A DNA stretch of 49,759 nucleotides from a virus. Taxonomy: Duplodnaviria; Caudoviricetes. The notes under the pieces were generated by a model. The model was given only the letters and a program-made list of their open reading frames with translations. It did no database searches and was not told the origin of the DNA. Positions 5,166 through 28,575 of this stretch are shown here, piece after piece. The stretch spans positions 1-49,759 of the IMG/VR virus record IMGVR_UViG_3300037483_000961; one strand, 5' to 3'. How positions within the stretch are numbered: the stretch's first letter is position 1; each line of letters starts with the position of its first letter. The position numbers and the translations under genes were made by a program.

Positions 5166-5708
5166 TTACGTGATAGCTATAGCTTTTGGTTTTCTATTTT
5201 CATTCACAGGAATTTCAACGATCAGCACGCCTTCGTTCCACTTCGTGGAAGCTTTGTCAATATCGTATTTGTCTCCATCCACAACGTATTTATACTTTCC
5301 AGATGTGGACTGTTTTATGCCTGTTCTAACAAGTTTCCATTCTTGAGTTTTTGTTTCTTCATCTTTGGCTATTTTAAGAACCAAATTCCCATCTTTGTAA
5401 GACAACGAAATATTTTCCTTTTTAATACCAGCCAAAGCATATTCAAACTTCAATGCTCCTGTTTCTACGTGAATAGAAACATTAAAAGGCGGAAACGTGT
5501 TTGTCACATTTGCCCACGGATTACCGTTATCCTGAATATACGTATCAATTATTTTCAACGTATAAAGAGGACGAGAAAAATCAACAAACGGAACAGATCC
5601 CCCTGCGCTTATCCTGTTACCCTCATAAGGAACATCAGGGATACAACCAAGAATATCCGAAAACCATGTCGAAGTGCTATTCGACCCAGAAATAGTAGAG
5701 TGTTTCAT
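5166..5708 (-). CDS. Small heat-shock protein (Hsp20/alpha-crystallin)
   Basis: FPPFNV...ALAGIKKENI...GVLIVEIP...KPKAIAI (IxI) motifs. Confidence 0.85.
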   Translation of the reverse strand: MKHSTISGSNSTSTWFSDILGCIPDVPYEGNRISAGGSVPFVDFSRPLYTLKIIDTYIQDNGNPWANVTNTFPPFNVSIHVETGALKFEYALAGIKKENISLSYKDGNLVLKIAKDEETKTQEWKLVRTGIKQSTSGKYKYVVDGDKYDIDKASTKWNEGVLIVEIPVNENRKPKAIAIT

Positions 5709-7337: not shown

Positions 7338-7520
7338 TTAACCACCAAGTGTATCAACTATGCTACGGAACAAAGATAGCACAACACTTGTCCACAATAA
7401 ACTAACAATATAATAAGGCGTCACGTAATCCTTATCTAATATCGACAAGAAAACATTGATTACAGCAATAATCAGTGCTACAATCCTAATAACAACCCAT
7501 ACAATATCTAATACACCCAT
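7338..7520 (-). CDS. Small membrane protein (2 TM)
   Basis: 60 aa, two hydrophobic segments, AGGAGG RBS. Confidence 0.65.
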   Translation of the reverse strand: MGVLDIVWVVIRIVALIIAVINVFLSILDKDYVTPYYIVSLLWTSVVLSLFRSIVDTLGG

Positions 7521-7574
7521 ACGCCCTCCTTAACAAATTTTAAAAAAGCAAAACCTTTTGCCTTTTCTCATATA

Positions 7575-7945
7575 ACCAACGTCCATAATCGAACTGGTAT
7601 CCTACGCAACCGCAGAACATACCCCAAGCCTGTTTACCGGGCTCTCGAAGGTTTCAGTCTTTCCCGATGTCATCGGCTCTTCTCCGTGATTGCGCTGACA
7701 CGAAAAAAAGTGTTCGATTATACCGTTTTGTTTTGTTTCAGCTCTCATCTTCTAATGGATTAGCTCTCCAGTCTAAACGGTTTGACTGATTGACCATCGT
7801 CCTGCGCGACCAGGATACTCAGCTACGATCAGCAGTGTGAACAATAGCGTCCTATTGTCGAGTAGCATCAGTTACCACACCACGTTGTACCGTGTGTACC
7901 ACCACATACTTGTGGTCTCGATGATTCTTGGTCTTTCCCAAGTGT
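7575..7945 (-). ncRNA. Putative large structured non-coding RNA directly 3' of tRNA-Tyr
   Basis: No credible ORF, GC-richer than flanks, many hairpins, long-range helices (ATAATCGAAC/GTTCGATTAT) and a possible pseudoknot; family not identified. Confidence 0.65.
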
Positions 7946-7946
7946 T

Positions 7947-8029
7947 AGCGCCGGGCAGGATTCGAACCTGCAACGTTTCTCGTGTAACGGATTTACAGTC
8001 CGCCCCCTTCACCATTTGGATACCGACGC
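7947..8029 (-). tRNA. tRNA-Tyr (anticodon GTA)
   Basis: GCGTCGG/CCGGCGC acceptor, GCGGA-CTGTAAA-TCCGT arm, long variable arm; discriminator reads U rather than the usual A. Confidence 0.88.
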
Positions 8030-8060
8030 ATATTTTATTCAATAATTGGTTTTTAAAACC

Positions 8061-8118
8061 AACCACATCCACAGAAAACAGGTAGAGTTTCTACCACAAT
8101 TTTTCTGCTTCAGTGGTT
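8061..8118 (-). ncRNA. Conserved 3' hairpin of pentamer array 1
   Basis: AACCAC/GTGGTT, GCAGAAAA/TTTTCTGT, GGTAGA/TCTACC helices; homologous to 14819-14872. Confidence 0.7.
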
Positions 8119-8120
8119 AA

Positions 8121-8291
8121 TTTCCGTTCCGGCCTTGCGTAGCCATGCCCCGCCTATCCTTGTCTTGTCCGGCCCCGCCATGCGTAGCCATGCCCCGCCT
8201 GCCTCGTATCGCCACGCCGTGCCTTACCCAGCCGATCCGCGCCTGCCTTGTGTCGCCACGCCTTTCCGGTCCGTGCCTTACCCTGCCTGCC
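8121..8291 (-). repeat. Pentamer-periodic GGH-NN array 1 (candidate guide-RNA array)
   Basis: 171 nt parse exactly as 31 pentamers plus 4 tetramer delimiters (GGCA x3, GGCC); starts ~22 nt after the accessory gene stop. Confidence 0.9.
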
Positions 8292-8313
8292 GTGTACTAA
8301 AACTTAAAAACTT

Positions 8314-8796
8314 TTACCCTGTAGTCTTGATCTTATCTCGAACTTTTTCGATAACACTTGTCACCATTTTGATTTCGTCACCAAGACCTAACACTTCAGC
8401 AACACCTCTTGCTCTGTTTATTGCTGCATCGGCTCGATCAATTTCCATCATCAATGCACTAATTGCGCGATCTCGATCGTTTCGAAGATCCGCAGCTCGC
8501 GCATATCCTTGCTGGTTTCCTCCAACATCAGGGCTACGAACAAACTCAGGTAAAATCTTTCCTTTCGGACTAAAAGAAACCGTTTCGTATGTAACCAAAA
8601 TTCTTACTCCGCGAATAATACGACGAGCTGTTTCCCGCCAAGCCTGCATAGCAGCCTGATTAACATCCCAATTAAATTGACTGTGCAACGGAGAATTTTC
8701 CTGTTTTGCATCAGCAATTACAATATCAGGCGTTATTCTGCCATGTTGGTTGTATAATTCACGAATCCTATTTTCAACCAAAAGCCTTTGATCCAC
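8314..8796 (-). CDS. Accessory protein of the Cas7-like/pentamer-array locus
   Basis: Start overlaps the stop of the RAMP-like gene; ITPDIVIADAK..NSPLHSQFNWD...AA...R..ARRIIR motif; function unknown. Confidence 0.8.
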   Translation of the reverse strand: MDQRLLVENRIRELYNQHGRITPDIVIADAKQENSPLHSQFNWDVNQAAMQAWRETARRIIRGVRILVTYETVSFSPKGKILPEFVRSPDVGGNQQGYARAADLRNDRDRAISALMMEIDRADAAINRARGVAEVLGLGDEIKMVTSVIEKVRDKIKTTG

Positions 8797-9560
8797 TAAA
8801 CCACCCCCTTGAAACCTCTCTTATCTACTTCACCTACAAACCACGAAAGAAGTTCTTCTGTTTCTTCGTCATACGGTTCTGCTCTGTCCATTCCTGCAAT
8901 CTGGACATCTCGTCCACCTTCAGACATAATCTTTTGAAAACGAATATCTTCAGGATCTACGATTTCAAACTGTCCATACGTACCTGATCCCTTTTCTGGC
9001 CTCCAATCGCCTACTCCTTGGATAAGACCTGCGGCAGAAAAAAGGTTAAAAACGACTGTTTCCTTCAAAATCGGTGTAGGGAAAGCAACTGTTACCTTTG
9101 CTGCCCATTCGGGTACAATACAACGAGTACGGACATCCGGTGTTCGAGCCATGTCAGAACTTCGAGTAATACTCATAAAAAGCTTAGGAATTCCATAAAT
9201 TCCAATCTTTTCCCCTTCAACCCACATAAGACGAGACATTTGTGCCTTCTTAGCGCCAGGGATATCCAATGCTGCGCTGGCGATTGATCGCTTAAACGCT
9301 GTTGACAAATGTGCCAAAAGGGTCGGCGCTGTTTCATCCTTGAGAATATAAGGAGAAGAACGGAATTCCTCAAACGGATTGTGCTTCAGTCCTGAAGCCT
9401 TTTCAGCAGAGGTCTTTCTACCAGACGGCATCAACAACTGGTGTCGAGCCTTTTCCGCAAGTCGATTAAGAATAATCGGTGTACGACCGAGAACGCAAAA
9501 ATCAACTCGGGCCATGTTGATTTCCATCGAAACAATTTCTGTCTGATCTTTTGTAGCCAC
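8796..9560 (-). CDS. Stand-alone Cas7-like RAMP-fold protein
   Basis: GTG start after AGGAGG; beta1 + TP (VDFCVLGRTPIILN), helix AFKRSIASAA, thumb-like segment then PEWAAKVTV, C-terminal glycine loop GLIQGVGDWRPEKGSGTYGQF. Confidence 0.75.
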   Translation of the reverse strand: MATKDQTEIVSMEINMARVDFCVLGRTPIILNRLAEKARHQLLMPSGRKTSAEKASGLKHNPFEEFRSSPYILKDETAPTLLAHLSTAFKRSIASAALDIPGAKKAQMSRLMWVEGEKIGIYGIPKLFMSITRSSDMARTPDVRTRCIVPEWAAKVTVAFPTPILKETVVFNLFSAAGLIQGVGDWRPEKGSGTYGQFEIVDPEDIRFQKIMSEGGRDVQIAGMDRAEPYDEETEELLSWFVGEVDKRGFKGVV

Positions 9561-9605
9561 TGCTACCTCCTATTTTTGTAACTCCATATGAAGTTAATTT
9601 GCAAC

Positions 9606-9634
9606 AACTTACATTATTCCCAAACATAAGTCAA
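9606..9634 (-). promoter_or_regulatory. Possible sigma70 promoter for the RAMP-array operon
   Basis: TTGACT-17 nt-TAAGTT, ~45 nt upstream of the GTG. Confidence 0.4.
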
Positions 9635-9774
9635 GCTGTTTCGGATTTTTCTATAAAAACTATTTCAAAGAGCCTGAAGCACAACGTAAAAATTCATTCG
9701 TACCTTACAATAGTACATTTTTTATTGGAATTCCGTGTGCTTCGTTGCTCTTGGAATAATGTAAACACAGTTTA

Positions 9775-10356
9775 TCATGAATCAGAATTGTTGTCAAGTC
9801 CTTTTAGAATAATAAAGCTCATTATTGTATCAATCTTACGAAACAATTGATCTCGGGAACCTGAATTATCTACTATAAAATCTCCCATAATACGATCTGC
9901 TTCTTTTTCTGATGGATGGTCATCTGTTTCATCCCCTCGTCCAATCATTTTTATTATATATCCACCTCTTTTTCCAATTTCCGAAACCTCAGTATCAGGA
10001 AATCGAACATCGGATATTGATATATTCTGACCTTGGTAGTCTTTGAATAATCTTTTTACCCATAGAGTCCTTCCTGTTTCCTTTTCGAATTCAGGATATA
10101 CAGCAGGCAAGAGCTTCTGCGCCCACTCAGTACCTATATTCTGTGCAATTTGCCTAGGGGATATTCCATAGAACGGATCAATTTGTTCCTTTAGTACCTC
10201 GTCTTCAAAAATAGATATATCCCATCCGAATGCAATACATGCCATTTGTTTTATAGGATGTGCAAAAGATGTTTGTTTATAATCATACTTTGCTTCCAAA
10301 TACGATGCTACGGTGTTTTTACCGGATCTTTTTCGGCCTGCTATTCCTACAATCAA
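9775..10356 (-). CDS. Deoxynucleoside monophosphate kinase (T4 gp1-like)
   Basis: IVGIAGRKRSGKNT P-loop, SFAHPIK, PRQIAQ.IGTE, ISDVRF, H.SE. Confidence 0.9.
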   Translation of the reverse strand: MIVGIAGRKRSGKNTVASYLEAKYDYKQTSFAHPIKQMACIAFGWDISIFEDEVLKEQIDPFYGISPRQIAQNIGTEWAQKLLPAVYPEFEKETGRTLWVKRLFKDYQGQNISISDVRFPDTEVSEIGKRGGYIIKMIGRGDETDDHPSEKEADRIMGDFIVDNSGSRDQLFRKIDTIMSFIILKGLDNNSDS

Positions 10357-10762
10357 GCTCTTCCTCCTGAATCATTTGATCTGTCACATAAAATAATTTA
10401 TCATCGTCGTCCTCGGCCAATGTCGGAGTGGCTATTGTTAACTCTCTGACGATCCAACTAATATAGGAGCTTCTTCGTCCCGTCAATCTGGATAACTCAT
10501 CTTCAGTAATGAATGGATGCAGTTCAATTGCTGTTTGAACCTCCTTCATGAGTTTTTCCTTCGTTACGCAAAAAAATTCCTGTAGAAATGAGATGTCCTC
10601 ATCGTTCACAATATTATCTTTCCCAAAGCCAAACCTATTGCAAACTCTTTTTACTTCTCGATACTTTCTATTGAGGTCTTTTGCGACATGGTGAATATTC
10701 ATTGTAACCTCTATCGTATATTTATTCATAATTATTATAGCACAAAAAAATAATCTTGTCAA
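10319..10762 (-). CDS. Hypothetical protein, possible HTH
   Basis: True start probably downstream (MNIHH, after GAGG) because the track start lies inside the promoter; helical ITEDELSRLTGRR segment. Confidence 0.6.
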   Translation of the reverse strand: MTRLFFCAIIIMNKYTIEVTMNIHHVAKDLNRKYREVKRVCNRFGFGKDNIVNDEDISFLQEFFCVTKEKLMKEVQTAIELHPFITEDELSRLTGRRSSYISWIVRELTIATPTLAEDDDDKLFYVTDQMIQEEELDCRNSRPKKIR

Positions 10763-10816
10763 GTCACAAATTAGACATTTTTTAATATTGACTTTTTTTT
10801 ATGGCTGTGCTATAAT
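10734..10816. promoter_or_regulatory. Divergent back-to-back sigma70 promoters at the strand switch
   Basis: Minus: TTGACA(10762-57)-17-TATAAT(10739-34). Plus: TTGACT(10788-93)-17-TATAAT(10811-16). Both have TGn extended -10. Confidence 0.85.
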
Positions 10817-10848
10817 TACAGTGGACAATTCTATCTTTCGGAGGAACT

Positions 10849-12798
10849 ATGAGAGAAAAAAGAAAGGCACTAAAGCAGGGAGAAGTTAACCTATTTAGTC
10901 CTGAGCAGTATGTATTTGAAGAAATGGAAGAAAATATCTGGGAACACCAATTTAACGTGTCTTCTCATTATTTCAATGAGGAAATCGCAATTAAATACGG
11001 AATAGTCGAAGCAGTAATTTTACAATCTATTGCTTTTTGGATCAAAGAAAACAAGAAAAAATCAATAAACTTTCACCACGGTCTCACTTGGACCTATAAT
11101 TCGGTCAAGGAGATGAAAGAAAAAAGACACAAATATCTGACAGAAGACCAAATCAGGTACGCCCTGGAGGGCCTTGTAAACAAAGGGGTACTCATAAAGG
11201 CCAATCTGAACTCCTGGGCAGCAGACAGAACTCTCTGGTATACGATTATTGATCCATATGTGAGATCCGCTTTTGGACTGCCTTCTTATGCCTTATCTTG
11301 CTTCGATTTTCCCATTTGGGAAAAGACGAAATCCCATTTGGGAAAATCCATAAATGGGGATTCCCATTCCGTAAATTCCCAAATGGATTTGGGAAAATCC
11401 ACAAATGGATTTGGGAAAATCCACAAAGCAATACCAGTTAATAGTAACAAGTTAATAGACAGTCAGATACTAGTATCAATTATTTATCTAAAGATAAATA
11501 ATTCATCAAGCCCAGATTACCCGCTACCGCAGGTAATCCAGGAACCGGATTCAGGAGTCGCTATCGCTCCGCCTGAACCGTTCCCTGTGTTAACTTCGTC
11601 GTCTTCGACTGATTCAAAAAAGCAAAAAGAAACATTATTCGAAACATCAGAAACAATATCTTCCCTGCCTATTAAAAATAATAAACCAATATTCGGCTCG
11701 GCGTTGCCCCCGGCTCGGCCCTCGCTTGTTACGTCACCGAATAAAAAGCTTGTCAAACTAACAACCCGAGAAGCTTTGTTTATTCCTGTCATAGAATTTT
11801 GGAACAAGAAAGCTTCAGAACTCAAAGAGGACAAAATCAATACTCCTGGAATGTATGGTGGATGTCCGAATGTATCCGTTATGAAAATTGATAATTCTGG
11901 ATTTGCGTCAAAAAGCGCAAAAAGCGTTCTTCAGAAAATGGTTCTGTTGGATGCTGGTACCTTTTTCCAACAATACAAAACCATTACCCGATGCACGCAA
12001 CTTCCTGCATTGCGCCACAACACTAAACAAGGATCGTTTACTGAGTCAAAATACAACATTGATGCTATTTTGATGGTTTTGGAAGCTTACTGGCTGAATT
12101 ATAGCCCTGAGTACATGCCTATTAGCAAATCTGCCTTAGCCACAACTATCCATGAGTTCTTTGGTCCAGGAAACGGAGGGAAAAACCAAGATCACAACAC
12201 CACATCATGGTTCTACGAGACCCTTCATCGTCCTGCCGTAAGAAACACAATAGGCGCAAATGGTCTGGAAAGAGTTAAGCAGGATTTCAAAGATGAGATA
12301 ACCAAGATTCATTCTATTTGCGAGGATCTGAAAATTCAACAGCGTAAGCATGTTGCAGAAGAAGTTGTAGCGAGTTTATTCGATGAGTACAACAGGGTAA
12401 ACAGAATTCTAAGTCCGTTGTACATTGATACAGGTTTGAACAATGAGTATGTTCATGCTTTTGGGAATTTCAAAACATATCTGAACGGATTTATTTCTTT
12501 CACTTTGTCCCATTTTGATAAAGTATGGGCTTCACACTTTAGACCGGAAAGGCCTACTTACAGGGAACAATTCAAATCCGCTGTCATGACCAAATACGGG
12601 TTTAACATTTTACCAAATAACTTGGAAGTAAAAAAGCTTGCCCTTGTACGATCTCAGATATTAATCAATCGCGGATGGAAAAACGAAGAAGACCAGATGT
12701 ATGTTGATGGTGAAGTTTCAGGCTATTTTGTTGATGAAGGTTCGATGATAGAGACCGGGAAAATTATTCCTTGGTGGAAACTGGCATCTATTGGGTAA
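10849..12798 (+). CDS. Putative replication initiator (N-terminal winged-helix, phage replisome-organizer-like)
   Basis: IAIKYGIVEAVIL...FWI..N...WTYNS...QIR.AL..LV.KG...DRTLWYTI N-terminal domain; internal DNA repeats; S/P-rich linker. Confidence 0.7.
   Translation: MREKRKALKQGEVNLFSPEQYVFEEMEENIWEHQFNVSSHYFNEEIAIKYGIVEAVILQSIAFWIKENKKKSINFHHGLTWTYNSVKEMKEKRHKYLTEDQIRYALEGLVNKGVLIKANLNSWAADRTLWYTIIDPYVRSAFGLPSYALSCFDFPIWEKTKSHLGKSINGDSHSVNSQMDLGKSTNGFGKIHKAIPVNSNKLIDSQILVSIIYLKINNSSSPDYPLPQVIQEPDSGVAIAPPEPFPVLTSSSSTDSKKQKETLFETSETISSLPIKNNKPIFGSALPPARPSLVTSPNKKLVKLTTREALFIPVIEFWNKKASELKEDKINTPGMYGGCPNVSVMKIDNSGFASKSAKSVLQKMVLLDAGTFFQQYKTITRCTQLPALRHNTKQGSFTESKYNIDAILMVLEAYWLNYSPEYMPISKSALATTIHEFFGPGNGGKNQDHNTTSWFYETLHRPAVRNTIGANGLERVKQDFKDEITKIHSICEDLKIQQRKHVAEEVVASLFDEYNRVNRILSPLYIDTGLNNEYVHAFGNFKTYLNGFISFTLSHFDKVWASHFRPERPTYREQFKSAVMTKYGFNILPNNLEVKKLALVRSQILINRGWKNEEDQMYVDGEVSGYFVDEGSMIETGKIIPWWKLASIG
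11308..11428. repeat. Iteron-like repeats, candidate replication origin inside the initiator gene
   Basis: Four ATTTGGGAAAA copies (11314, 11336, 11387, 11409; two pairs spaced 22 bp) plus inverted TTCCCA half-sites. Confidence 0.7.
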
Positions 12799-12951
12799 TA
12801 TATAATCACAGACAAAAGAATGAATCCTGTTTTCTGCTTCATATAGCCCCGTGGTGAGGCTTTACAGGATATTTTAGAGTATGGATACCACTTAGAAAAA
12901 ACAGGCTCCTAAAAAGCCTGTTTTATGAGTTAGTTATTTTTCAAATACGGC

Positions 12952-12980
12952 TTGACATAATGTTTGTGGTGTGTTATTAT
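12952..12980 (+). promoter_or_regulatory. sigma70-type promoter for the recombinase-SLT-array 2 unit
   Basis: TTGACA-17-TATTAT with TG extension. Confidence 0.7.
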
Positions 12981-13002
12981 GTTTTTGAAATCAGGAGGCA
13001 AC

Positions 13003-13908
13003 ATGACTGAAATAGCGCAAATCAACAGTGCCAATGTGAGCCAACTAACTCAGGAGCAAATTCAGTATGTAATGAATGTATTGAAATTTGAGGAAGCGAA
13101 AGCAAATGTGAAAAAATCATTAGTTAAGCAGGACATGGATATGAGAGCCTTGCTGGATACGTTCCTTGCTCAAAAAAGCATTAATACTCAGAAAACGTAT
13201 CGACCAATTATTCTTGATTTTCTGAACAACGTGTCTCATGTTGTGGATATTACCCCTGTGTTTGTGGATCAGTATATCGAAGAGTTGACAACAAGGTTCT
13301 CACCGGCAACAGTGAGATTAAAGATTTCTGCCTTGAGTAGTTTTGTTTCCAAGATCGTTAGGTGGCAGTACTTGGATCGAAATCCGTTTATTGGATGTGA
13401 GTTGCCCAAAGATGAAAACACTGAAGTGGTGGTTCCGACACAAGAAGAAGTGGTTGCCATATTGGATTACGCTCAAGTTGCTGATAGAAAAATAGTTTTT
13501 GATTCGGTTACCCTGATGTCTGAGCTTGGTGTGCGGGTCGGTGCAATAGAAAAATTGTTCATAGATGTGGAAAAATTGGTATTCGAAAGTGAATCTAAAG
13601 GAAAGAGAATATCAGGAAAGATTTCACAGGACATTCTGGATAAGTTAAATATCCATGAATCTGGTTTTCATTTTTCCCGATATAACAAACCTTTGATACA
13701 GTTTCATCTTGACAAGTGTGTATCGTACCTTGCAAAAATAGGTAAAGTACAAAATAAGATACACGCTCATAGTTTTAGGCATTTTTATGCAGTCAAATTG
13801 TATAAATATACAAAAGATATCTATGAAGTGAGCAGAAAATTACACCATAGTAGTGTTACAATTACGCAACGATATCTACGTTCGATAAATTTACTGGAGG
13901 AACTATGA
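13003..13908 (+). CDS. Tyrosine recombinase (XerC/D-like)
   Basis: ATG 13003 after AGGAGG; SAM-like N-domain; catalytic R (GVRVG), K, HSFRH, H (LHHSS), Y (TQRYL). Confidence 0.9.
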   Translation: MTEIAQINSANVSQLTQEQIQYVMNVLKFEEAKANVKKSLVKQDMDMRALLDTFLAQKSINTQKTYRPIILDFLNNVSHVVDITPVFVDQYIEELTTRFSPATVRLKISALSSFVSKIVRWQYLDRNPFIGCELPKDENTEVVVPTQEEVVAILDYAQVADRKIVFDSVTLMSELGVRVGAIEKLFIDVEKLVFESESKGKRISGKISQDILDKLNIHESGFHFSRYNKPLIQFHLDKCVSYLAKIGKVQNKIHAHSFRHFYAVKLYKYTKDIYEVSRKLHHSSVTITQRYLRSINLLEEL

Positions 13909-14531
13909 GGCATAATACGATTTTACTATTTTTGTGCATGGCGGTAATTAGTTTGGCACCGTTTGGTTATACTAACGTTTCCGATGTAGCCGACCAAGTA
14001 AGTCAGCAAATCGAATATCAATCATTACCAAATTCACCCAGGGATAGAGATGTTGCTCAGTTTTTGTTTGAGTATAACATTGAGTTGGAATTCTGGCTAG
14101 AAGTAATTCCTAATAAAGAACTTGTGTATCAAGTTGTGGATAGTCGTTTGGGTGTTCCAAGATCGTTGGTGTTTGCATTGGTAGCAACAGAAAGCCAGTT
14201 TGTTTCTCATGCAGTAGGAAGAAATCCTGTATCAAAGGATTACGGTTTGTTTCAGTTGAATTCTGTTACGTATAGTGCCTATTCTGTTACTCAGTTGTTG
14301 GATGAAAATGTGAATATTTCTTTAGGACTTAAGCATTTATACGATGAAATGAAGCGGTTTGATTGGGACATGGAGTTGGCTGTAAAGGCGTACAATGCTG
14401 GGCCGTACAGGGTGAGAAAAGGAACTGAGCCTGAATCAACGAAAAGATATTCTCAAAAAGTATTGACACAGAAAGAGAACTATGATATCATGTTTAAAGA
14501 GTTTCGAGCTTCCTTTGGGAAGTATCGTTAA
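13905..14531 (+). CDS. Lytic transglycosylase (SLT domain) with N-terminal signal
   Basis: ALVATESQF (catalytic E), GLFQLN, AYNAG motifs. Confidence 0.9.
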   Translation: MRHNTILLFLCMAVISLAPFGYTNVSDVADQVSQQIEYQSLPNSPRDRDVAQFLFEYNIELEFWLEVIPNKELVYQVVDSRLGVPRSLVFALVATESQFVSHAVGRNPVSKDYGLFQLNSVTYSAYSVTQLLDENVNISLGLKHLYDEMKRFDWDMELAVKAYNAGPYRVRKGTEPESTKRYSQKVLTQKENYDIMFKEFRASFGKYR

Positions 14532-14552
14532 GGTTTTTCAGTTTTAGTACAC

Positions 14553-14816
14553 GGCAGGCAGGGTAAGGCACGGACCGGAAAGGCGTGGCAGGAGAGGCAA
14601 GGTTTGGAATGGCTCGGATGGGACAGGCAAGACAACGCAGGAATGGAATGACAAGGCTCGGAACGGCCCGACAGGGTGATACGAGGCAGGCGCGGATTGG
14701 CTTGGAGCGACCAGGACTGGTGAGTCGGGGCAGGACGGGCAGGGCAAGGAATGGCTCGGATGGGACAGGCAAGACATGATAAGGCATGGCCGGGCGCAAC
14801 GAGGCAGGAACGGAAA
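14553..14816 (+). repeat. Pentamer-periodic GGH-NN array 2 (orphan candidate guide-RNA array)
   Basis: 264 nt parse exactly as 48 pentamers plus 6 tetramer delimiters (GGCA x5, CGCA); 14540-14589 is identical to the reverse complement of 8255-8304. Confidence 0.9.
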
Positions 14817-14818
14817 TT

Positions 14819-14872
14819 AACCACAAAAGCAGAATTTAGTAGAGTGATCTACTGTTTTCTGCGGATGTGGTT
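14819..14872 (+). ncRNA. Conserved 3' hairpin of pentamer array 2
   Basis: AACCACA/TGTGGTT, GCAGAA/TTCTGC, AGTAGA/TCTACT helices with compensatory changes versus the array 1 copy. Confidence 0.7.
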
Positions 14873-14895
14873 GGTTTGAAACTATAGGAGTCAAG

Positions 14896-15132
14896 ATGAG
14901 AAATGTTCAAAATTTAACAGCAAATGAGATACTAAATGCGACAAAACCTCACCATATATTCACCCGAGATAACTATAAAAATGAATACAGATTATTGGCA
15001 AAAAAATGGCACCCAGATGCAGGTGGCGACGATCAAGTTTTTCAACATATTGCTATTTTGTACAGTGAGGCGGAAAAATCAATATCCGACCATCACTGGG
15101 GGTTTGCTGGATCTTACGAGGATTCCAAGTAG
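14896..15132 (+). CDS. Small J-domain protein
   Basis: YRLLAKKWHPD motif; AGGAG RBS; 78 aa, possibly truncated. Confidence 0.75.
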   Translation: MRNVQNLTANEILNATKPHHIFTRDNYKNEYRLLAKKWHPDAGGDDQVFQHIAILYSEAEKSISDHHWGFAGSYEDSK

Positions 15133-15172
15133 GATGGACACAAGCTATATCTTTGAAAAATAAGGAAACAAA

Positions 15173-15499
15173 ATGAAGTGGACCGTAAGCAAACATATTC
15201 AAGAAAAGATAACAATGCTGTCTATGACCATAGATATGGCTATGATTATTTTCGAACAATTGAGGAGTAACCATAATATTGTAGCTCTTATCAGGAGAAA
15301 ACTCGAACGAAGAGAAATAGCTGAGGTACCTATAGAATCCATTCACGATAAATATCTTGAATGTTTACATAAAACAGGATTGCATTATTATTTTTTCCCA
15401 TCTTACGGAGCTATTCCGTTTGCTTGGAGTCCTAATATGTGGTTTGTAAATTTCTTATCAGAGAACAATATAGAAATTTATGAACAAATATTACGATAA
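15173..15499 (+). CDS. Hypothetical protein
   Basis: 108-aa ORF, AAGGA RBS. Confidence 0.6.
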   Translation: MKWTVSKHIQEKITMLSMTIDMAMIIFEQLRSNHNIVALIRRKLERREIAEVPIESIHDKYLECLHKTGLHYYFFPSYGAIPFAWSPNMWFVNFLSENNIEIYEQILR

Positions 15500-15538
15500 G
15501 GGATTGCACAACTTGCAATATTATGGTATACTTGGTGA

Positions 15539-21014: not shown

Positions 21015-24000
21015 ATGACATCTGCTGCTTTTCTTGGTCTAAAAAGAGTTATTCATTTTTTGTTGGCTGTTCTAAGTATTGTATTTTCTGTTATCTTATT
21101 TGTTCAGTTTTCTAATCATTTTTGGGGTAGATTAATTTTTGGCACTAGTGCAACTATTGTTGAATTGTTCAAGATTTATTCTTTGATACAAATGAAAACT
21201 ATGTTCGTTGCTGGTCTAAAGCAAAATGGAAAAATGTTTTTGGTTTGTTTTGGATTTTTCATTATTTATACAGGATTGACGGCGTTCAGTATTGTAGCTA
21301 CATTAGGCTATAACTTGAACACTATTCAAGGGCAGTCCTTCTATGCTGTGGTTCGTAATATTGAAACTGAATCAGCTATTCGAGATATTGAACGGATCGA
21401 TGATGAAATAGACACCAAACTCCGCCAGCAAAGTGAATTACCATTTGATTATGTTACAGCAAGTGATAGGTATACTAAGCAAATAGAAGAGCTGAGACAG
21501 ATAAGAAGAAACCTGGAAACCAGCATAGCAAATGCAGAGAAAGTCCAGGATTCAGCAGACACATTTTCGATGTTAGGTGAGTTGATTCGTATTTCAGGAG
21601 AACGAGTTCTTTTTATCTTGCTATTTGGTTTATCGATTATTTTCGAAATAGGAATAGCTGTTACTGGAGATGTGATTACAGAAAAGAAGAATAAAACACC
21701 TAAGAACAATGAAGTTATAGAAAAGGAAGAACAAATGGCTGGTTTTTTAGATATACCTGAAGAGAAAGTAAGAACTACAGTAAAGAAAGAAAAACGATTA
21801 GGTGGATGCGAGACATGTCTTTTATACACCATGTGTAAAACTCCTAAAATGGAAGTTTATGGACAAGGAAACAAAAAGATATTACTACTTTTTGATCATC
21901 CTTCAGCTACAGAAGACCATTCAGGTAATCCTTTTGTTGATGGCACGTACAAGTACATTTTTGAAATATTCGAACAACACGGAATAACAAAAGAAGATAT
22001 TTGGGTTTCGCACGCTGTTCAATGCTATCCCGGAAATCATAAGAGCAACAAAAACAAACAAGAAGATTCAGTACCGGCAGAAGCGATAGCCGGTTGTTAC
22101 ACCCGACTCATGGCAAACATCAATAAGTTACAACCAGAAAAGATTTTCGTTTTTGGTGGCGTAGCTATGCGTACATTATATCATAATGTCGATTCAGGTC
22201 GATTTAGTTTTGCCAAATACAAGAAATTCCCAGGACATATAATCTCTGATCAGAATTTGGATACCGTAGTTATTCCAGTTCAAAGCCCTCAGTACGCCCT
22301 GTCGATTCTGGAGAAAAGAAAAAAAGGAATCATGAAGTACAAGCCGGATTCTAAATTTGCTAGGGATATTTGGAGGGACCAGTACTTAACACAGACAGAT
22401 GATTTTAGGCTTCATGACAGGACTATCAAAACTCAAATCAGTAAAGGAATCGGTGCCAAATTTATTCCTTACAAAAACAGTACTGTACAATACGTTACAG
22501 AGTATCAAGATGTTTTAAAACTTCTCCGTCACCTTACGACAGTAAAAGAGTTTGCTTTTGATATCGAAACTACAGGACTAAAGCCTTATGCTGAAGGACA
22601 CGAAATAGATGTTTGGGGGTTCAGTACTGGGGATGCTTCGTATGCTTTTCCTCATTTCACCGATGATAGATTTATTCGACTGATGCGCCGAGTTATGGAC
22701 AGCCCTGCTAAGAAGTATGGCGCTAACATAAAATTTGAACAAATATGGATTAAGCATTTTTTAAACGTTGACATTCAGAACTGGGAAATGGATACAGTCA
22801 TTGGCGCTCATGTTATAGATAACCGAGACGGAATAACCAGTTTGAAATTTCAATCATTTGTTCGTTTAGGTAAAGTTGGTTATGATAGCGAAATAGATCC
22901 ATTTATTACTACTCCTAAAAATTCCGGGGGCAATGCCCAAAATAGAATAAAAAATGTACCTTTGGGTAAACGATTAGAATATGTGGCTATGGACGCTGAG
23001 TATACTTTTTCCCTGGCCAAAATAATGATGGAGATTATTTTTAATGACCCTGTTATCAGTCAAGGGTATCAACTTTTTCATGAAGCTCAGTTATCTTTTG
23101 CGGATATGGAATACAGAGGATTCAGGGTAGATTCTATTCAGCTAGAAAAAAATATTATAGCTGAAGAAAAGAAATCGTACATGCTTTATAGCGAAATCGT
23201 AAAGCAACCAGAAATTCAAGATTGGCCTTCTTTCAATCCAGGAAGTAACTCAGATCTAATTGAGTTGTTTTACAATCGATTGCATTTTCCGGTTATAGAA
23301 TACACAGACAAAGGCCAGCCAAGTACTAAGAGCAGTGTTTTGGATGATTTCTACGATGTTCATGGTTGTAAAATAGCGCATCTGATTTCTGAATACGCAA
23401 CAACACAACAAACATTAAATACATTCCTAAAAGGCATTCAAAGAGAAACGTATCAAGAAGAAGTACATCCGTCCTTTTCGGCTAACTTGGTGAGTTCATA
23501 CAGAACAAGTAGCCAAAATCCGAACTTTACTAATCTTCCAGAACGAAACAAAGAAGCTATGAAAAAGATCAAATCCCCATTGGTTCCGCGACCGGGATTT
23601 GTTTTTATTGATGCCGACTACAAGTCCATAGAAAGTTATGTCGGAGCAGCATACCATAACGATTCTACATTTGTGACGTATCTTATGGATGAAAATACTG
23701 ATGCCCATGCTGATAACGCACAAGATATTTTTATGTGCAGAAAAGAGGATGTTGATCCTGAATTATTTGAAAAATTAAGAAAGGTGGGAAAAACATTCAG
23801 TTTTGCTATGCAGTATGGAATTGCTTCAAAGAACATTGCTACAAAATTGTGGAATGCCCATATGGATTCATCCCATAAGGATTTCCTGAAAACCAAGAGC
23901 ATTAACTCTTTGCAGGAATTCATCGAGCATATGAAGGGTATGTATTCAAATTATTGGGAGGTAAAATATAGGGAACTGAATACTTGGAGAAATGACACAT

Positions 24001-24401
24001 GGGAAACTTTTGTCACCAAAGGTTTCATTGAAAGCAAAACTGGATTCAGGTATACAGGAATCAGCTCTAAAAACCAGATATGTAACCTACCTATTCAGGG
24101 ATCTGCTGCACATTGTTTGGTATTTGGGCTTAATGAGTTCAATAAAGAAAGAAAGAAACTTAATCTAAAATCAGGGGCAATAGCAGAAGTGCATGACGCT
24201 ATTATCATTGAAACAGCTATTGATGAAATTGAAATAGTTAAAGAACTTATCAGAGAGTGTTTCCTTAATAGGGTATTTGCGAAATTTGGTTGGATCACAC
24301 TTCCTCTTACGATTGCAGGAGAAATATTTGAAAGCAATTGGGCAGAAAGTAATTCTGATCTTGATTTCACATTGGGTCGTTCTGATAAGGAGGTAGCTTG
24401 A
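21015..24401 (+). CDS. polA: Family A DNA polymerase with UDG-like and 3'-5' exonuclease domains; ORF begins with a 240-aa membrane/coiled-coil region (internal start 21735 possible)
   Basis: CETC..C and HAVQCYP (family-4 UDG-like), FDIETTGL exo I, DADYKSIE motif A, RKVGKTFSFAMQYG motif B, EVHDA motif C. Confidence 0.9.
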   Translation: MTSAAFLGLKRVIHFLLAVLSIVFSVILFVQFSNHFWGRLIFGTSATIVELFKIYSLIQMKTMFVAGLKQNGKMFLVCFGFFIIYTGLTAFSIVATLGYNLNTIQGQSFYAVVRNIETESAIRDIERIDDEIDTKLRQQSELPFDYVTASDRYTKQIEELRQIRRNLETSIANAEKVQDSADTFSMLGELIRISGERVLFILLFGLSIIFEIGIAVTGDVITEKKNKTPKNNEVIEKEEQMAGFLDIPEEKVRTTVKKEKRLGGCETCLLYTMCKTPKMEVYGQGNKKILLLFDHPSATEDHSGNPFVDGTYKYIFEIFEQHGITKEDIWVSHAVQCYPGNHKSNKNKQEDSVPAEAIAGCYTRLMANINKLQPEKIFVFGGVAMRTLYHNVDSGRFSFAKYKKFPGHIISDQNLDTVVIPVQSPQYALSILEKRKKGIMKYKPDSKFARDIWRDQYLTQTDDFRLHDRTIKTQISKGIGAKFIPYKNSTVQYVTEYQDVLKLLRHLTTVKEFAFDIETTGLKPYAEGHEIDVWGFSTGDASYAFPHFTDDRFIRLMRRVMDSPAKKYGANIKFEQIWIKHFLNVDIQNWEMDTVIGAHVIDNRDGITSLKFQSFVRLGKVGYDSEIDPFITTPKNSGGNAQNRIKNVPLGKRLEYVAMDAEYTFSLAKIMMEIIFNDPVISQGYQLFHEAQLSFADMEYRGFRVDSIQLEKNIIAEEKKSYMLYSEIVKQPEIQDWPSFNPGSNSDLIELFYNRLHFPVIEYTDKGQPSTKSSVLDDFYDVHGCKIAHLISEYATTQQTLNTFLKGIQRETYQEEVHPSFSANLVSSYRTSSQNPNFTNLPERNKEAMKKIKSPLVPRPGFVFIDADYKSIESYVGAAYHNDSTFVTYLMDENTDAHADNAQDIFMCRKEDVDPELFEKLRKVGKTFSFAMQYGIASKNIATKLWNAHMDSSHKDFLKTKSINSLQEFIEHMKGMYSNYWEVKYRELNTWRNDTWETFVTKGFIESKTGFRYTGISSKNQICNLPIQGSAAHCLVFGLNEFNKERKKLNLKSGAIAEVHDAIIIETAIDEIEIVKELIRECFLNRVFAKFGWITLPLTIAGEIFESNWAESNSDLDFTLGRSDKEVA

Positions 24402-25398: not shown

Positions 25399-28300
25399 AT
25401 GCCTATTGAATTTTTAAACGACGACAAACAGCCATTATCTGCAATCATTCACCATATGAAATATGCTCGGTATCTTGAAGATAAAAAGCGAAGAGAAACA
25501 TGGGAAGAAACTGTTGAACGAAATAAACAAATGCACCTAAAGAAGTATAGTAAAAACATTCAAGAATTTCCTGAACTGAGAGAAGATATTGAGGAATTAT
25601 ACAATAAGTATGTTTTTACAGGAAAGGTTCTTCCGTCTATGAGGGCGCTTCAGTTTGGAGGAAGGCCCATAGAGCTTAATCCTGTTCGTCAGTTCAACTG
25701 TTCGTTTCTGCATGTATCGGATCAAGTTGCTTTTTCGGAAGCTTTATTCTGTTTACTATCAGGAACAGGGGTGGGATATTCTGTTCAAAAACACCACATC
25801 GAACAATTACCTCCAATCTTAGGAGTACAAAAGGACAACATCAAACGTTTTCTAATCGGTGACTCAATAGAAGGATGGTCTGATGCAGTTAAAGTATTGA
25901 TAAAGTCTTATTTTGAAGGTAGCGAAGATGTTGAATTTGATTTTAGAGATATACGATCCAAAGGTACGCGACTAGTAACTTCAGGAGGTAAAGCTCCTGG
26001 ACCTGAACCACTGAGACTTGCTCTTATTCAAATAAAATCTATTTTTGAAAATGCTTTACAAACTAGAGGATTTGGTACGAAACTTAAACCTATTGAAGCC
26101 CACGATTTGATGTGCTATTTGGCCGACGCTGTATTGTCAGGAGGAATTAGAAGAGCAGCAATGATTTCTCTTTTTAGTTTTGATGATCATGAGATGTTAG
26201 AATCAAAGTTTGGTGCTTTCTGGGAATTAAATCCTCAAAGACAAAGAGCTAATAATTCTGCTGTTATTCTGAGGGATAGGATCACTGAAGATGAGTTTTG
26301 GAATTTCTGGAGAAAAATAGAAGAATCGAAAAAAGGAGAACCTGGAATATTTTTTACGAATAATAGAGATCTGGGCACAAACCCATCACTAAGAGCAGGG
26401 ACTAAAGTTTTAACTAAGTCAGGTATAGTACCCATAGAGAAACTACAAGATACATCTTTTGAAGTCCCTAATTTGGATGGACATTGGAGCTATGCACAAT
26501 GTTGGAAGTCTGGAGAGAATATAAGATTATGGAAACTAAAATTTGATAATGGTGTAGAATATTTCTCATCTCCGCAGCATGAATGGCCTGTTTATAACAA
26601 TGGTAGATACCTAAAGTGCCAAAGTAATAAATTAAAGCCTGGAGACAGGATGCCCATAAACGCATTTAACAGAAAAGAATTATTTGAAGGAACTAAAGGT
26701 ACTTATGATATTGGATTTGTAATAGGGTGGTTATACGGAGATGGTTCTTTGACAAAACGATCTGATACTGGAAAATACGTAGCTTCTTTTGTTGTTTCGA
26801 AAAAAGAAACCGAGGTATTAGATATATTACTGAATACAATTAATCAGATAGACGGAGTCAGTAGAAAGTTATATGAAAGAAATTCTGTTTTTGAATTCCA
26901 AGTCGGATCTCCTAAATTTATAAATTTAATTATGAATGAGTATGGCGTAAATAAAAAGGAAAAAGGCATACCTGCAAATTTGTGGACCCAGTGGAACGAC
27001 ACTTGTATACGAGGATTCATCGATGGTTTATTTTCTGCTGATGGACATATAAGTGCTGACTCTCATGGGATAAATATTGTTTCTTCTAGAGAGAAATTAG
27101 TAAAAGATGTACAAGAATTATTAGGTTTTTATGGTATTAAATCTAATATTAGCCACAAGTCAATTCGTGGAGGCGCTTTCCCTAATAAAAAAACATATGA
27201 CAAAGAATACAACAGCTATGTGCTACGAACAACACTATCAGGAAGATTGAAATTTCATGAGTTATTTCAATTATCTGTACATCACAAACAAAAAAATCTT
27301 TCTGAAACTAAACAAATTGATAAGAGTACTATAAATCAGCAATTTATGATACTAAGGTCAATTGAAGAAACAAATATTCATGAAGATGTTTGGGATATAT
27401 CTGTAAAAGATAGTACCCACTGTTTTCATCTGTCTACTGTCACTACCGGCAATTGCAGCGAAATCAGTTTGAAAGATCAAGAATTCTGTAATTTAACCGA
27501 AATCAATGCTTCTAATATTGTATCCCAAGAGGATTTAGAGGGTAGAGTTTGGGCAGCCACACTTCTCGGTACACTACAAGCCGGATATGTAAATTTTCAT
27601 TATTTGAGGTCTGGGTGGAAAAAGAATGGAGAAAAAGAAGCATTGCTAGGTGTGTCTATGACAGGAGTATGTTCGCCGATAATTGAAACACTGGATATTA
27701 AAAAGGCTTCTTCGCTCACCAAGTCAATAAATAGCAAATATGCTAAAATGATAGGGATTAAAGAATCTAGACGTATAACAGCTATAAAACCAGCCGGAAC
27801 AACGAGTCTTGTCTTAGGAACTTCTTCAGGAATACACGCATGGCACAATGATTACTATTTAAGACGAGTGAGAGTAAATAAAAATGAAGCTATTTATGTT
27901 TACCTGAATATGTTCTACCCTGAACTTTTAGAAGATGATTATTTCTCTCCCGAGAAATCTGCTGTAATTACAGTACCACAAAAAGCACCAGAAGGTGCTG
28001 TATTAAGAACTGAATCCCCGATAGACACATTAGAAAGAGTCAAGTCATTTCACAGAAATTGGATAAAACCCGGACATAGACAAGGAGATAACACCCACAA
28101 TGTAAGTTGCACTATTAGCATAAAAGATGAAGAATGGCAAACAGTAGGACAATGGATGTGGTTAAATAGGGACCATTATACTGGAATATCTGTGCTTCCT
28201 TATGATGGAGGAACATATATTCAACCTCCGTTCGAGGATTTGGTAGACGGATATGTGTTTAAATTATCTAACGGCGAAGTGATACGAAATAAAGCTTCTG

Positions 28301-28575
28301 ATGATATGCTAACAGTGAAGTTCAATGGAGATGAAAAAACAGAAACAAAAACAGTTTCAGAACTTGCTAATAATTTTTCTGATTACAAATTACGCAGCTT
28401 AAAAGGTTCTTTTGAGGATATAAACTCTATTAAATATATGACAAAAAAGGAGCAATATGAAGAATTAGTACAAAAACTAAAATCGGTGGATGTAAGTTTT
28501 GTTCCTGAAGAAGAAGACGGAACTGATCTATCAGGAGAATTAGCATGTGCAGGCGGAGCTTGCGAAGTAAAATAA
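25399..28575 (+). CDS. nrdJ: Class II (B12-dependent) ribonucleotide reductase containing an intein
   Basis: RRETWEE, FNCSF, GTGVG, GGIRRAA, NP/CSEI split by the intein, TAIKPAGTTS, C-terminal CAGGAC. Confidence 0.93.
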   Translation: MPIEFLNDDKQPLSAIIHHMKYARYLEDKKRRETWEETVERNKQMHLKKYSKNIQEFPELREDIEELYNKYVFTGKVLPSMRALQFGGRPIELNPVRQFNCSFLHVSDQVAFSEALFCLLSGTGVGYSVQKHHIEQLPPILGVQKDNIKRFLIGDSIEGWSDAVKVLIKSYFEGSEDVEFDFRDIRSKGTRLVTSGGKAPGPEPLRLALIQIKSIFENALQTRGFGTKLKPIEAHDLMCYLADAVLSGGIRRAAMISLFSFDDHEMLESKFGAFWELNPQRQRANNSAVILRDRITEDEFWNFWRKIEESKKGEPGIFFTNNRDLGTNPSLRAGTKVLTKSGIVPIEKLQDTSFEVPNLDGHWSYAQCWKSGENIRLWKLKFDNGVEYFSSPQHEWPVYNNGRYLKCQSNKLKPGDRMPINAFNRKELFEGTKGTYDIGFVIGWLYGDGSLTKRSDTGKYVASFVVSKKETEVLDILLNTINQIDGVSRKLYERNSVFEFQVGSPKFINLIMNEYGVNKKEKGIPANLWTQWNDTCIRGFIDGLFSADGHISADSHGINIVSSREKLVKDVQELLGFYGIKSNISHKSIRGGAFPNKKTYDKEYNSYVLRTTLSGRLKFHELFQLSVHHKQKNLSETKQIDKSTINQQFMILRSIEETNIHEDVWDISVKDSTHCFHLSTVTTGNCSEISLKDQEFCNLTEINASNIVSQEDLEGRVWAATLLGTLQAGYVNFHYLRSGWKKNGEKEALLGVSMTGVCSPIIETLDIKKASSLTKSINSKYAKMIGIKESRRITAIKPAGTTSLVLGTSSGIHAWHNDYYLRRVRVNKNEAIYVYLNMFYPELLEDDYFSPEKSAVITVPQKAPEGAVLRTESPIDTLERVKSFHRNWIKPGHRQGDNTHNVSCTISIKDEEWQTVGQWMWLNRDHYTGISVLPYDGGTYIQPPFEDLVDGYVFKLSNGEVIRNKASDDMLTVKFNGDEKTETKTVSELANNFSDYKLRSLKGSFEDINSIKYMTKKEQYEELVQKLKSVDVSFVPEEEDGTDLSGELACAGGACEVK
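26386..27453 (+). mobile_element. Intein with LAGLIDADG homing endonuclease (356 aa)
   Basis: Starts SLRAGTKVLT, block B SPQHEW, LAGLIDADG motifs GWLYGDG and GLFSADG, ends VWDISV...TTGN before Cys+1. Confidence 0.92.

Follow-up and report, generated by a model that had tools for sequence, protein, structure and literature searches.

What is the role of a second array of guide-like pentamers that lies 5 kb away from the vipr gene of the same phage genome? This question is raised by the IMG/VR record IMGVR_UViG_3300037483_000961 (Duplodnaviria; Caudoviricetes), of which positions 1 to 49,759 (49,759 nucleotides, called the window here) were analyzed. VIPR guides consist of pentamers of a GGY (or related) triplet and an NN dinucleotide, are aligned to the wobble positions of their targets with a 1-nt skip and can be organized in staggered arrays with 1-nt overlaps (Yoon et al. 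2026, 10.64898/2026.04.26.720920); the staggered vrRNA array architecture is depicted in fig. S18 of that paper (PMC13142463). Only two period-5 GG arrays were found in the window, compared to 0 in each of 30 Markov shuffles. Array 1 belongs to the vipr-vap operon, while array 2 is found on the opposite strand at a distance of 4,970 nt from vipr. Taken together, our analysis indicates that array 2 is probably a separately transcribed guide array, cut at its junctions and loaded onto Vipr, which would bind the DNA of competing elements in a gapped manner and silence them.

The vipr-vap Operon

Using sequence profiles and a structure model, we assign the 8796-9560 protein to Vipr and the locus to the VIPR systems. 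The protein is without a Pfam family, and 1404 homologues were obtained among 1716 candidates. When a 96-sequence Vipr profile was compared to 177,635 PDB sequences, the Vipr of SUSP1 was the sole match (E 7e-4). The hhalign alignment to SUSP1 Vipr reached a probability of 92.6 and extended over 51 columns, among them the thumb arginine and the D-W-R of the G-loop, with R138, D177, W178 and R179 paired with R146, D185, W186 and R187 of SUSP1 Vipr. In SUSP1 Vipr, G1, G2 and Y3 are read by those thumb and G-loop residues (10.64898/2026.04.26.720927, cited here and below from the accessible part of its text). The AF2 model (pLDDT 84.6) showed a structural match to Csm3/Cas7-type RAMPs. A Pfam scan of 30 window proteins found no cas families; in total, 105 ORFs of the window reach 70 aa, and many of these are shadow frames.

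Of the 206 related loci, 157 had a vap homologue at a distance of up to 1.5 kb from vipr. Compared to SUSP1, the vap gene of the window is unrelated to vap1, with no detectable likeness between the two. On the same strand as array 1, tRNA-Tyr starts about 25 nt past the array-1 tail hairpin (7947-8055, minus strand), and the 3' end of the array-1 RNA could therefore be generated by tRNA processing. An Rfam scan of positions 7500-15500 gave tRNA-Tyr as the sole match.

Architecture of Array 2

Two independent segmentations resolved positions 14553-14816 into pentamers of a fixed triplet (in most cases GG with C, T or A in third place) followed by two variable bases, NN (Table 1). The original prediction, made from the sequence alone, had described units of 6, 9, 9, 8, 14 and 2 pentamers separated by GGCA or CGCA and had listed their NN strings; both were reproduced without change. 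Equally correct was the placement directly behind the SLT gene, as the array starts 21 nt past the TAA that ends at 14531. The six GGCA/CGCA steps between the units are 4 nt long, corresponding to a 1-nt overlap, which is the feature of a staggered array. Unit lengths of 9, 9 and 14 fall inside the published range of 9-16 repeats, while units 1 (6) and 4 (8) are shorter.

Table 1. Position of the two arrays, their genes and their predicted signals in the window.
Feature	Position	Strand	Basis or remark
Predicted sigma-70 promoter	14463..14491	+	within the 3' end of the SLT gene, facing array 2
SLT-domain lytic transglycosylase gene	13905..14531	+	contains the predicted array-2 promoter; outside the effector
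Leader of array 2	14532..14552	+	directly behind the SLT stop codon; homologue of the array-1 leader that follows the vap stop codon
First GGCA junction and unit 1 (6 pentamers)	14553..14586	+	equals the first 6 array-1 pentamers; variable in run X4
GGCA junction and unit 2 (9 pentamers)	14587..14635	+	5-pentamer run common to unit 5
CGCA junction and unit 3 (9 pentamers)	14636..14684	+	segmentation
GGCA junction and unit 4 (8 pentamers)	14685..14728	+	paralogous to unit 2 of array 1, in register
GGCA junction and unit 5 (14 pentamers)	14729..14802	+	paralogous to unit 3 of array 1
Terminal junction and two trailer pentamers	14803..14816	+	common to array 1
3' tail of array 2, long predicted hairpin	14814..14877	+	kept in array 1
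vipr, 254-aa RAMP-fold protein, G-loop GVGDWRP	8796..9560	-	profile, hhalign, AF2 model
vap, accessory gene, 160 aa, phrog_15946 (family of unknown function)	8314..8796	-	abuts vipr
Array 1, operon-linked, staggered, units of 8, 8, 13 and 2	8121..8291	-	segmentation
Array-1 tail hairpin	8055..8124	-	z -6.0; then tRNA-Tyr (7947-8029)

Analyzing the triplets, 37 of 46 pentamers started with GG (21 GGY, 16 GGA), which places array 2 closer to the NNNGG consensus than to a strict GGY (consensus: Yoon et al., 10.64898/2026.04.26.720920). The share of GGA was 16/46 in array 2 versus 4/29 in array 1. The predicted tail hairpin had a folding energy of -32.1 kcal/mol (z -6.5), and 0 of 200 shuffles were as strong. 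Covariation was not detected when RNAalifold was applied to a MAFFT alignment of the two tails (0 compensatory and 1 one-sided change in 17 pairs). Single folds of the two tails suggested one A-U to G-C change in an inner stem, a stem that was lost in RNAalifold. The trailer of array 2 also terminates arrays in three of the related loci (L001, L214, L220).

Relation Between the Two Arrays

By sequence comparison, array 2 is a diverged copy of the operon array, enlarged by an 88-nt insert; the similarity starts at the stop codon of the gene in front and includes leader, units, trailer and tail. The leader and first six pentamers had been predicted to match array 1, and indeed 50 nt are identical between 14540-14589 (plus strand) and 8255-8304 (minus strand). 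The last two pentamers agree as well, as predicted, preceded by a GGCA junction in array 2 and by GGCC in array 1. The further claim of a different interior held only in part: the 88-nt insert is specific for array 2, but unit 4 lies in register with array-1 unit 2 (8 N, 3 third-position and 3 G differences) and unit 5 lies opposite unit 3.

Identical pentamer runs had lengths of 6 (between the arrays), 5 (units 2 and 5) and 3, compared to a maximum of 3 in 2000 shuffles, and array 2 contains an internal 29-nt duplication. Runs of at least 4 pentamers were also observed in 8 of 122 non-identical related loci versus 0.4 expected. Comparison with 729 units of relatives did not yield common NN runs beyond those of shuffles. 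In run X1, possibly the source sample, the shared 50 nt collapsed to one 50-nt contig with a depth of 15.5, compared to 6-9 for its flanks.

The arrays are mutually inverted (8255-8304 and 14540-14589) and bracket a segment of 6.2 kb. A tyrosine recombinase gene with an H-x-x-R-H motif is located at 12964-13908 within this segment. Recombination between the inverted arrays would invert the 6.2-kb segment and swap the array interiors. No strand-changing joint was found among the run contig matches listed; the contigs break at the 50-nt repeat.

Variation Between Samples

A contig of 206 nt from run X4 (depth 3.2) spans 14468-14674, from the end of the SLT gene into unit 3. It carries 18 substitutions and a 1-nt deletion in the leader; among the 16 substitutions listed, 15 are located in the array and 1 in the leader. 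For units 1 and 2 of array 2, the substitutions listed affected N at 10/30 positions, third bases at 4/15 and G at 1/30, and none of the 8 junction positions was changed. The contrast of N versus G positions was significant for this single contig of depth 3.2 (Fisher p 0.006), and the sole G change listed concerns a non-canonical triplet in front of a junction. We regard these differences as genuine, since sequencing errors would not sort by position class.

The original prediction had counted the first six pentamers among the constant ends of the array. This did not hold for X4, where unit 1 carries seven listed changes (5 in NN, 2 in third positions) next to a nearly unchanged leader. With unit 1 variable and the leader near-constant, the 50-nt identity is best read as the result of recent copying between the arrays, and the first six pentamers as putative recently copied guide content. 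Array 1 was unchanged in run X3. Run X5 gave no contig match, and no RNA run was among the matches listed. In run X2, an array-2-type tail was followed by a different sequence; the difference begins right after the tail, before 15110 (positions 14881-15110 of the window). Due to this divergence, the slot of a small DnaJ-like ORF (14896-15132) looks variable between relatives. From the combined sequence data we infer that guide content may be rewritten by in-place NN substitution and by block copying within and between arrays.

A Predicted Promoter for Array 2

The predicted promoter of array 2 consists of TTGACA, a spacing of 17 nt, an extended -10 TG and TATCAT, with a score of 11/12. Only 4 sites of at least 11/12 were present in the 49.8-kb window, all with TG, while 0.025 sites with TG per window were expected from Markov shuffles. 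The remaining three sites are intergenic and located ahead of genes. Judged from these signals, a predicted promoter and a 3' hairpin, array 2 appears to have what a free-standing RNA gene needs.

A second explanation concerns the use of array 2. It might be a donor or reservoir of NN blocks that reach the operon array through gene conversion or recombination, or it might be drifting, and would then provide few or no guides of its own. Such a role would suit the exact 50-nt block, which is common to array 1 here and not in X4, the internal 29-nt duplication, the higher GGA content compared to array 1, the short unit 1 and the lack of a target in our searches. We nevertheless consider it unlikely, because the near-consensus predicted promoter is aimed at array 2, the tail is intact, and the substitutions fall on NN but spare the G positions, unlike in neutral decay.

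Related Loci and Known Systems

Arrays were called in 206 partly redundant loci with Vipr homologues from viral, genome and metagenome scans, with flanks of up to 10 kb; 14 distant or partial matches (L049-L062) were excluded, and at least 5 kb were available on some side in 118 loci and on both sides in 50. An array was found in 180 of 206 loci, with 4-nt junctions in 179 of these 180 and a mode of the unit length of 8-11. Almost all arrays (234 of 235) were located within 2 kb of vipr in the 206 loci, the exception being a low-complexity purine run, so that the distal placement of array 2 is unusual. In whole viral records, junction matches were obtained in 32 of 35, and among the matches listed, the junction clusters adjoin vipr in those records that were checked against vipr coordinates. 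Lone junction matches with 1 mismatch away from vipr numbered at least 5 versus 9 in the control (35 records; among the matches listed). Four candidates for far arrays, obtained by the first caller in 82 viral loci, were all rejected as collagen-like coding repeats.

Closer relatives were searched by several routes. The exact 18-nt trailer was absent from the viral collection, a blastn search for sibling arrays in phages found nothing, and a search with SNF2 gave no close relative of the phage (at most 28% identity). Among cultured phages, 32 records of Mycobacterium and Gordonia phages (H1-H32) carry a distant Vipr homologue annotated as hypothetical.

GGA triplets made up 11.5% in relatives, reaching up to 80% in some vipr-adjacent arrays. 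Six relatives (L173, L176, L177, L081, L082, L166) have vipr-adjacent arrays with 53-80% GGA triplets. As the Y3 pocket of SUSP1 Vipr excludes purines (10.64898/2026.04.26.720927), these GGA-rich arrays form a natural set for the study of third-position specificity. Following GGCA, the next commonest junctions in the related set were GGCG and GGCT; eight loci (L013, L017, L020, L028, L036, L041, L044, L045) showed no GGCA junction in a simple count, with GGCG-GTC-type steps apparent.

The locus shares with the published staggered VIPR systems the phage RAMP-fold Vipr with one accessory gene, pentamers of fixed triplet and NN, 4-nt (1-nt-overlap) junctions, a structured 3' tail and the lack of a self-target. 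It differs from them by a second array 5 kb off, on the opposite strand, with a predicted promoter inside an unrelated gene, and by the GGA triplets that make up about one third of array 2. Compared to SUSP1, where a pseudoknot follows each vrRNA, one long hairpin tail is found per array. With the Class 1 CRISPR systems (Cas7/Csm3) the RAMP fold and a multi-guide precursor with a leader are shared; in contrast, array 2 has no direct repeat/spacer structure, and specificity is spread over NN dinucleotides. A comparable arrangement is that of isolated CRISPR arrays acting in trans.

Solo vrRNAs, defined by the lack of a Vipr on the contig or by a nearest Vipr more than 20 kb away, occur in F5 satellites and in vipr-null SUSP1-family phages (Lopez et al. 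2026, 10.64898/2026.10.15.759431, cited here and below from its accessible part). They resemble array 2 as cassettes apart from vipr with a kept cognate tail and expected loading in trans. Array 2 differs from them in its staggered multi-guide build and in being a duplicate of the operon array in its own genome, and with vipr 4,970 nt away it is not solo by the published definition. The accessible parts of the VIPR literature, which include a further VIPR-related paper (10.64898/2026.10.21.760802), do not mention a second distal array under separate promotion in any vipr-positive phage, though the supplements of Lopez et al. could include such phages; in the accessible part of that paper, the terms "gene conversion" and "distal" have 0 occurrences. 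VIPR as such is already published, and the split layout is new relative to the relatives and texts examined.

The solo vrRNAs introduce another possible use of array 2, as the guide of a foreign Vipr, of either a co-infecting phage or a paralogue in the missing half of the genome, where it would act as a decoy or anti-VIPR RNA. The record is linear and about 49% complete, so that another Vipr could sit in the missing part. Published solo vrRNAs redirect Vipr (10.64898/2026.10.15.759431), and the independent predicted promoter and the GGA share above that of array 1 are compatible with a separate client. We find this explanation quite improbable, as leader, trailer and tail are those of the own operon array, vipr is only 5 kb away, and no unit matched vipr genes or arrays of the related loci above shuffles. 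Array 2 reads as repertoire expansion rather than hijacking.

Searches for Targets

A gapped search of the NN strings against host and co-occurring phage genomes, with shuffled controls, had been proposed as a check. In our searches, no unit was clearly above shuffles (61 loci; 242 sequences, 2.7 Mb). The best match in the 242 sequences, unit 5 at 22/28 in L026, was equalled by 1 of 60 shuffles, and the best match of array-1 unit 1 (15/16) was reached by 4 of 60; with 10 queries, both were rejected as targets and attributed to chance. The own genome was searched with 8 units at skips 0-3 with masked arrays, and none was found above 30 shuffles, which agrees with the lack of a self-target in VIPR systems. 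Without masking, at skip 1, again no unit exceeded shuffles in this record of about 49% completeness.

Exact 1-nt-skip scans of the viral collection gave a match for 1 of 4 patterns. NN 1-11 of unit 5 matched with 22/22 bases in the record L004, on the antisense strand of a gene of the IMPDH/GMPR family. Exact matches were not found in the viral collection for NN 4-14 of unit 5 or for units 2 and 3, each taken with a junction, nor in the metagenome collection for NN 1-12 of unit 5. The chance of a match of the L004 type is about 1e-13 per position, and for a viral collection which we take to comprise about 5e10 bases, roughly 0.01-0.05 such matches would be expected by chance. The L004 match skips codon position 1, not the wobble position, and the last three NN of unit 5 match in 2 of 6 bases. 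On the 29-kb L004 record, no other unit was above shuffles. Allowing up to 3 mismatches, NN 1-11 of unit 5 had matches in 0 of 5 genomes and in 7 of 401 genomes of one phylum, all with 3 mismatches (control 1), and unit 3 had none in the records G001 and G002. Overall, the IMPDH/GMPR match may be taken as a tentative lead to a target of unit 5, with a small but real chance to be correct. We were aware of the fact that exact-pattern scans miss the 80%-match targets which Yoon et al. accept. A natural target of array 2 was not established by these searches.

This outcome could be explained if the arrays of this Vipr clade were guides under another rule, for example with a different skip, an RNA target or read-through of the junctions. 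The 1-nt rule left us without a convincing target and its sole exact match is off the wobble phase; moreover, the Vipr is remote from SUSP1 Vipr, with one stretch of 48-51 residues aligned, and is accompanied by a different accessory gene. However, the G-loop and thumb residues are kept, and protomer geometry sets the 1-nt skip in two solved systems (10.64898/2026.04.26.720927), which makes a different rule very unlikely. Finally, we give next to no credence to an artefact or non-guide origin of array 2 (a copy of array 1 produced by mis-assembly, a neutral microsatellite or the reverse strand of a short protein-coding gene), although the X1 contigs break at the 50-nt repeat, so that X1 alone cannot phase the flanks, and minus-strand open frames of 77-110 aa run over array 2: the repeat depth in X1 is twice that of the flanks, array 1 is unchanged in X3, the independent X4 contig links units of the array-2 type to the SLT end, a period of 5 with shifts of 4 nt does not resemble a codon pattern, the shadow frames of the two arrays share only short low-score matches, and the substitution pattern spares GG.

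Proposed Function of Array 2

A guide array that loads onto the Vipr of this phage is the most probable reading of array 2. The original prediction had proposed a programmable guide-type cassette and argued against a neutral microsatellite; this agrees well with the concentration of variation in NN, the predicted promoter, the conserved tail and the presence of a Vipr-family RAMP in the genome. Array 2 is likely transcribed from its own predicted promoter. By analogy to the SUSP1 and P. fulva systems, the transcript is predicted to be cut at the 4-nt junctions, resulting in about five guide RNAs, which would likely be taken up in trans by the Vipr of the same phage. Also following these two systems, one protomer would bind per pentamer with GG-n held by the protein, while NN would pair with dsDNA, skipping one base per step and causing transcriptional repression. 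The loaded Vipr would in this way bind and silence the DNA of rival phages or satellites. Points that weigh against this reading are the lack of an established target, the low number of pentamers in units 1 and 4, and the GGA triplets (16/46), which the Y3 pocket of SUSP1 Vipr would disfavor, although some relatives reach 80% GGA. Judged from the comparison of the two arrays, the second array would widen the guide repertoire.

If so, a staggered array is predicted to function on its own, as a multi-guide cassette under a separate promoter that serves a remote, GGA-tolerant Vipr, and a cassette of this type would be useful for multiplexed guide design. In addition, surveys of vipr neighbourhoods can miss part of the guide repertoire of a phage. 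The accessible parts of the VIPR literature do not describe how the NN code of the guides is written or updated. The two paralogous arrays and a natural allele, in which NN are substituted in place within a constant scaffold and blocks are copied between units, make this question testable.

A bolder proposal is that the inverted array pair is an active guide-rewriting device, operating by block copy or exchange and possibly by inversion of the 6.2-kb recombinase-bearing segment, and that unit 5 may target the IMPDH/GMPR gene of a rival with a non-wobble skip. We regard this as speculative and rather doubtful. If true, the pair would represent a Cas1-free route to new guide specificities, and rewriting should be catchable in this phage population, since unit 1 has both an array-1-copied and an independent allele.

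Further Observations in the Window

The window contains genes of replication and nucleotide metabolism and six tRNAs. Three near-tandem 41-nt repeats with ATTTGGGAAAA cores were found at 11305-11427 inside a replication-initiator-like gene (10849-12798); by their sequence, they are a candidate iteron-like origin. For the Hsp20 gene (5166-5708, minus strand) the nearest Atlas clusters were viral and Spirochaetota, which is a weak lead to the host. Furthermore, a PolA with an N-terminal UDG-family domain is encoded at 21015-24401, and a class II ribonucleotide reductase with a LAGLIDADG intein at 25399-28575.
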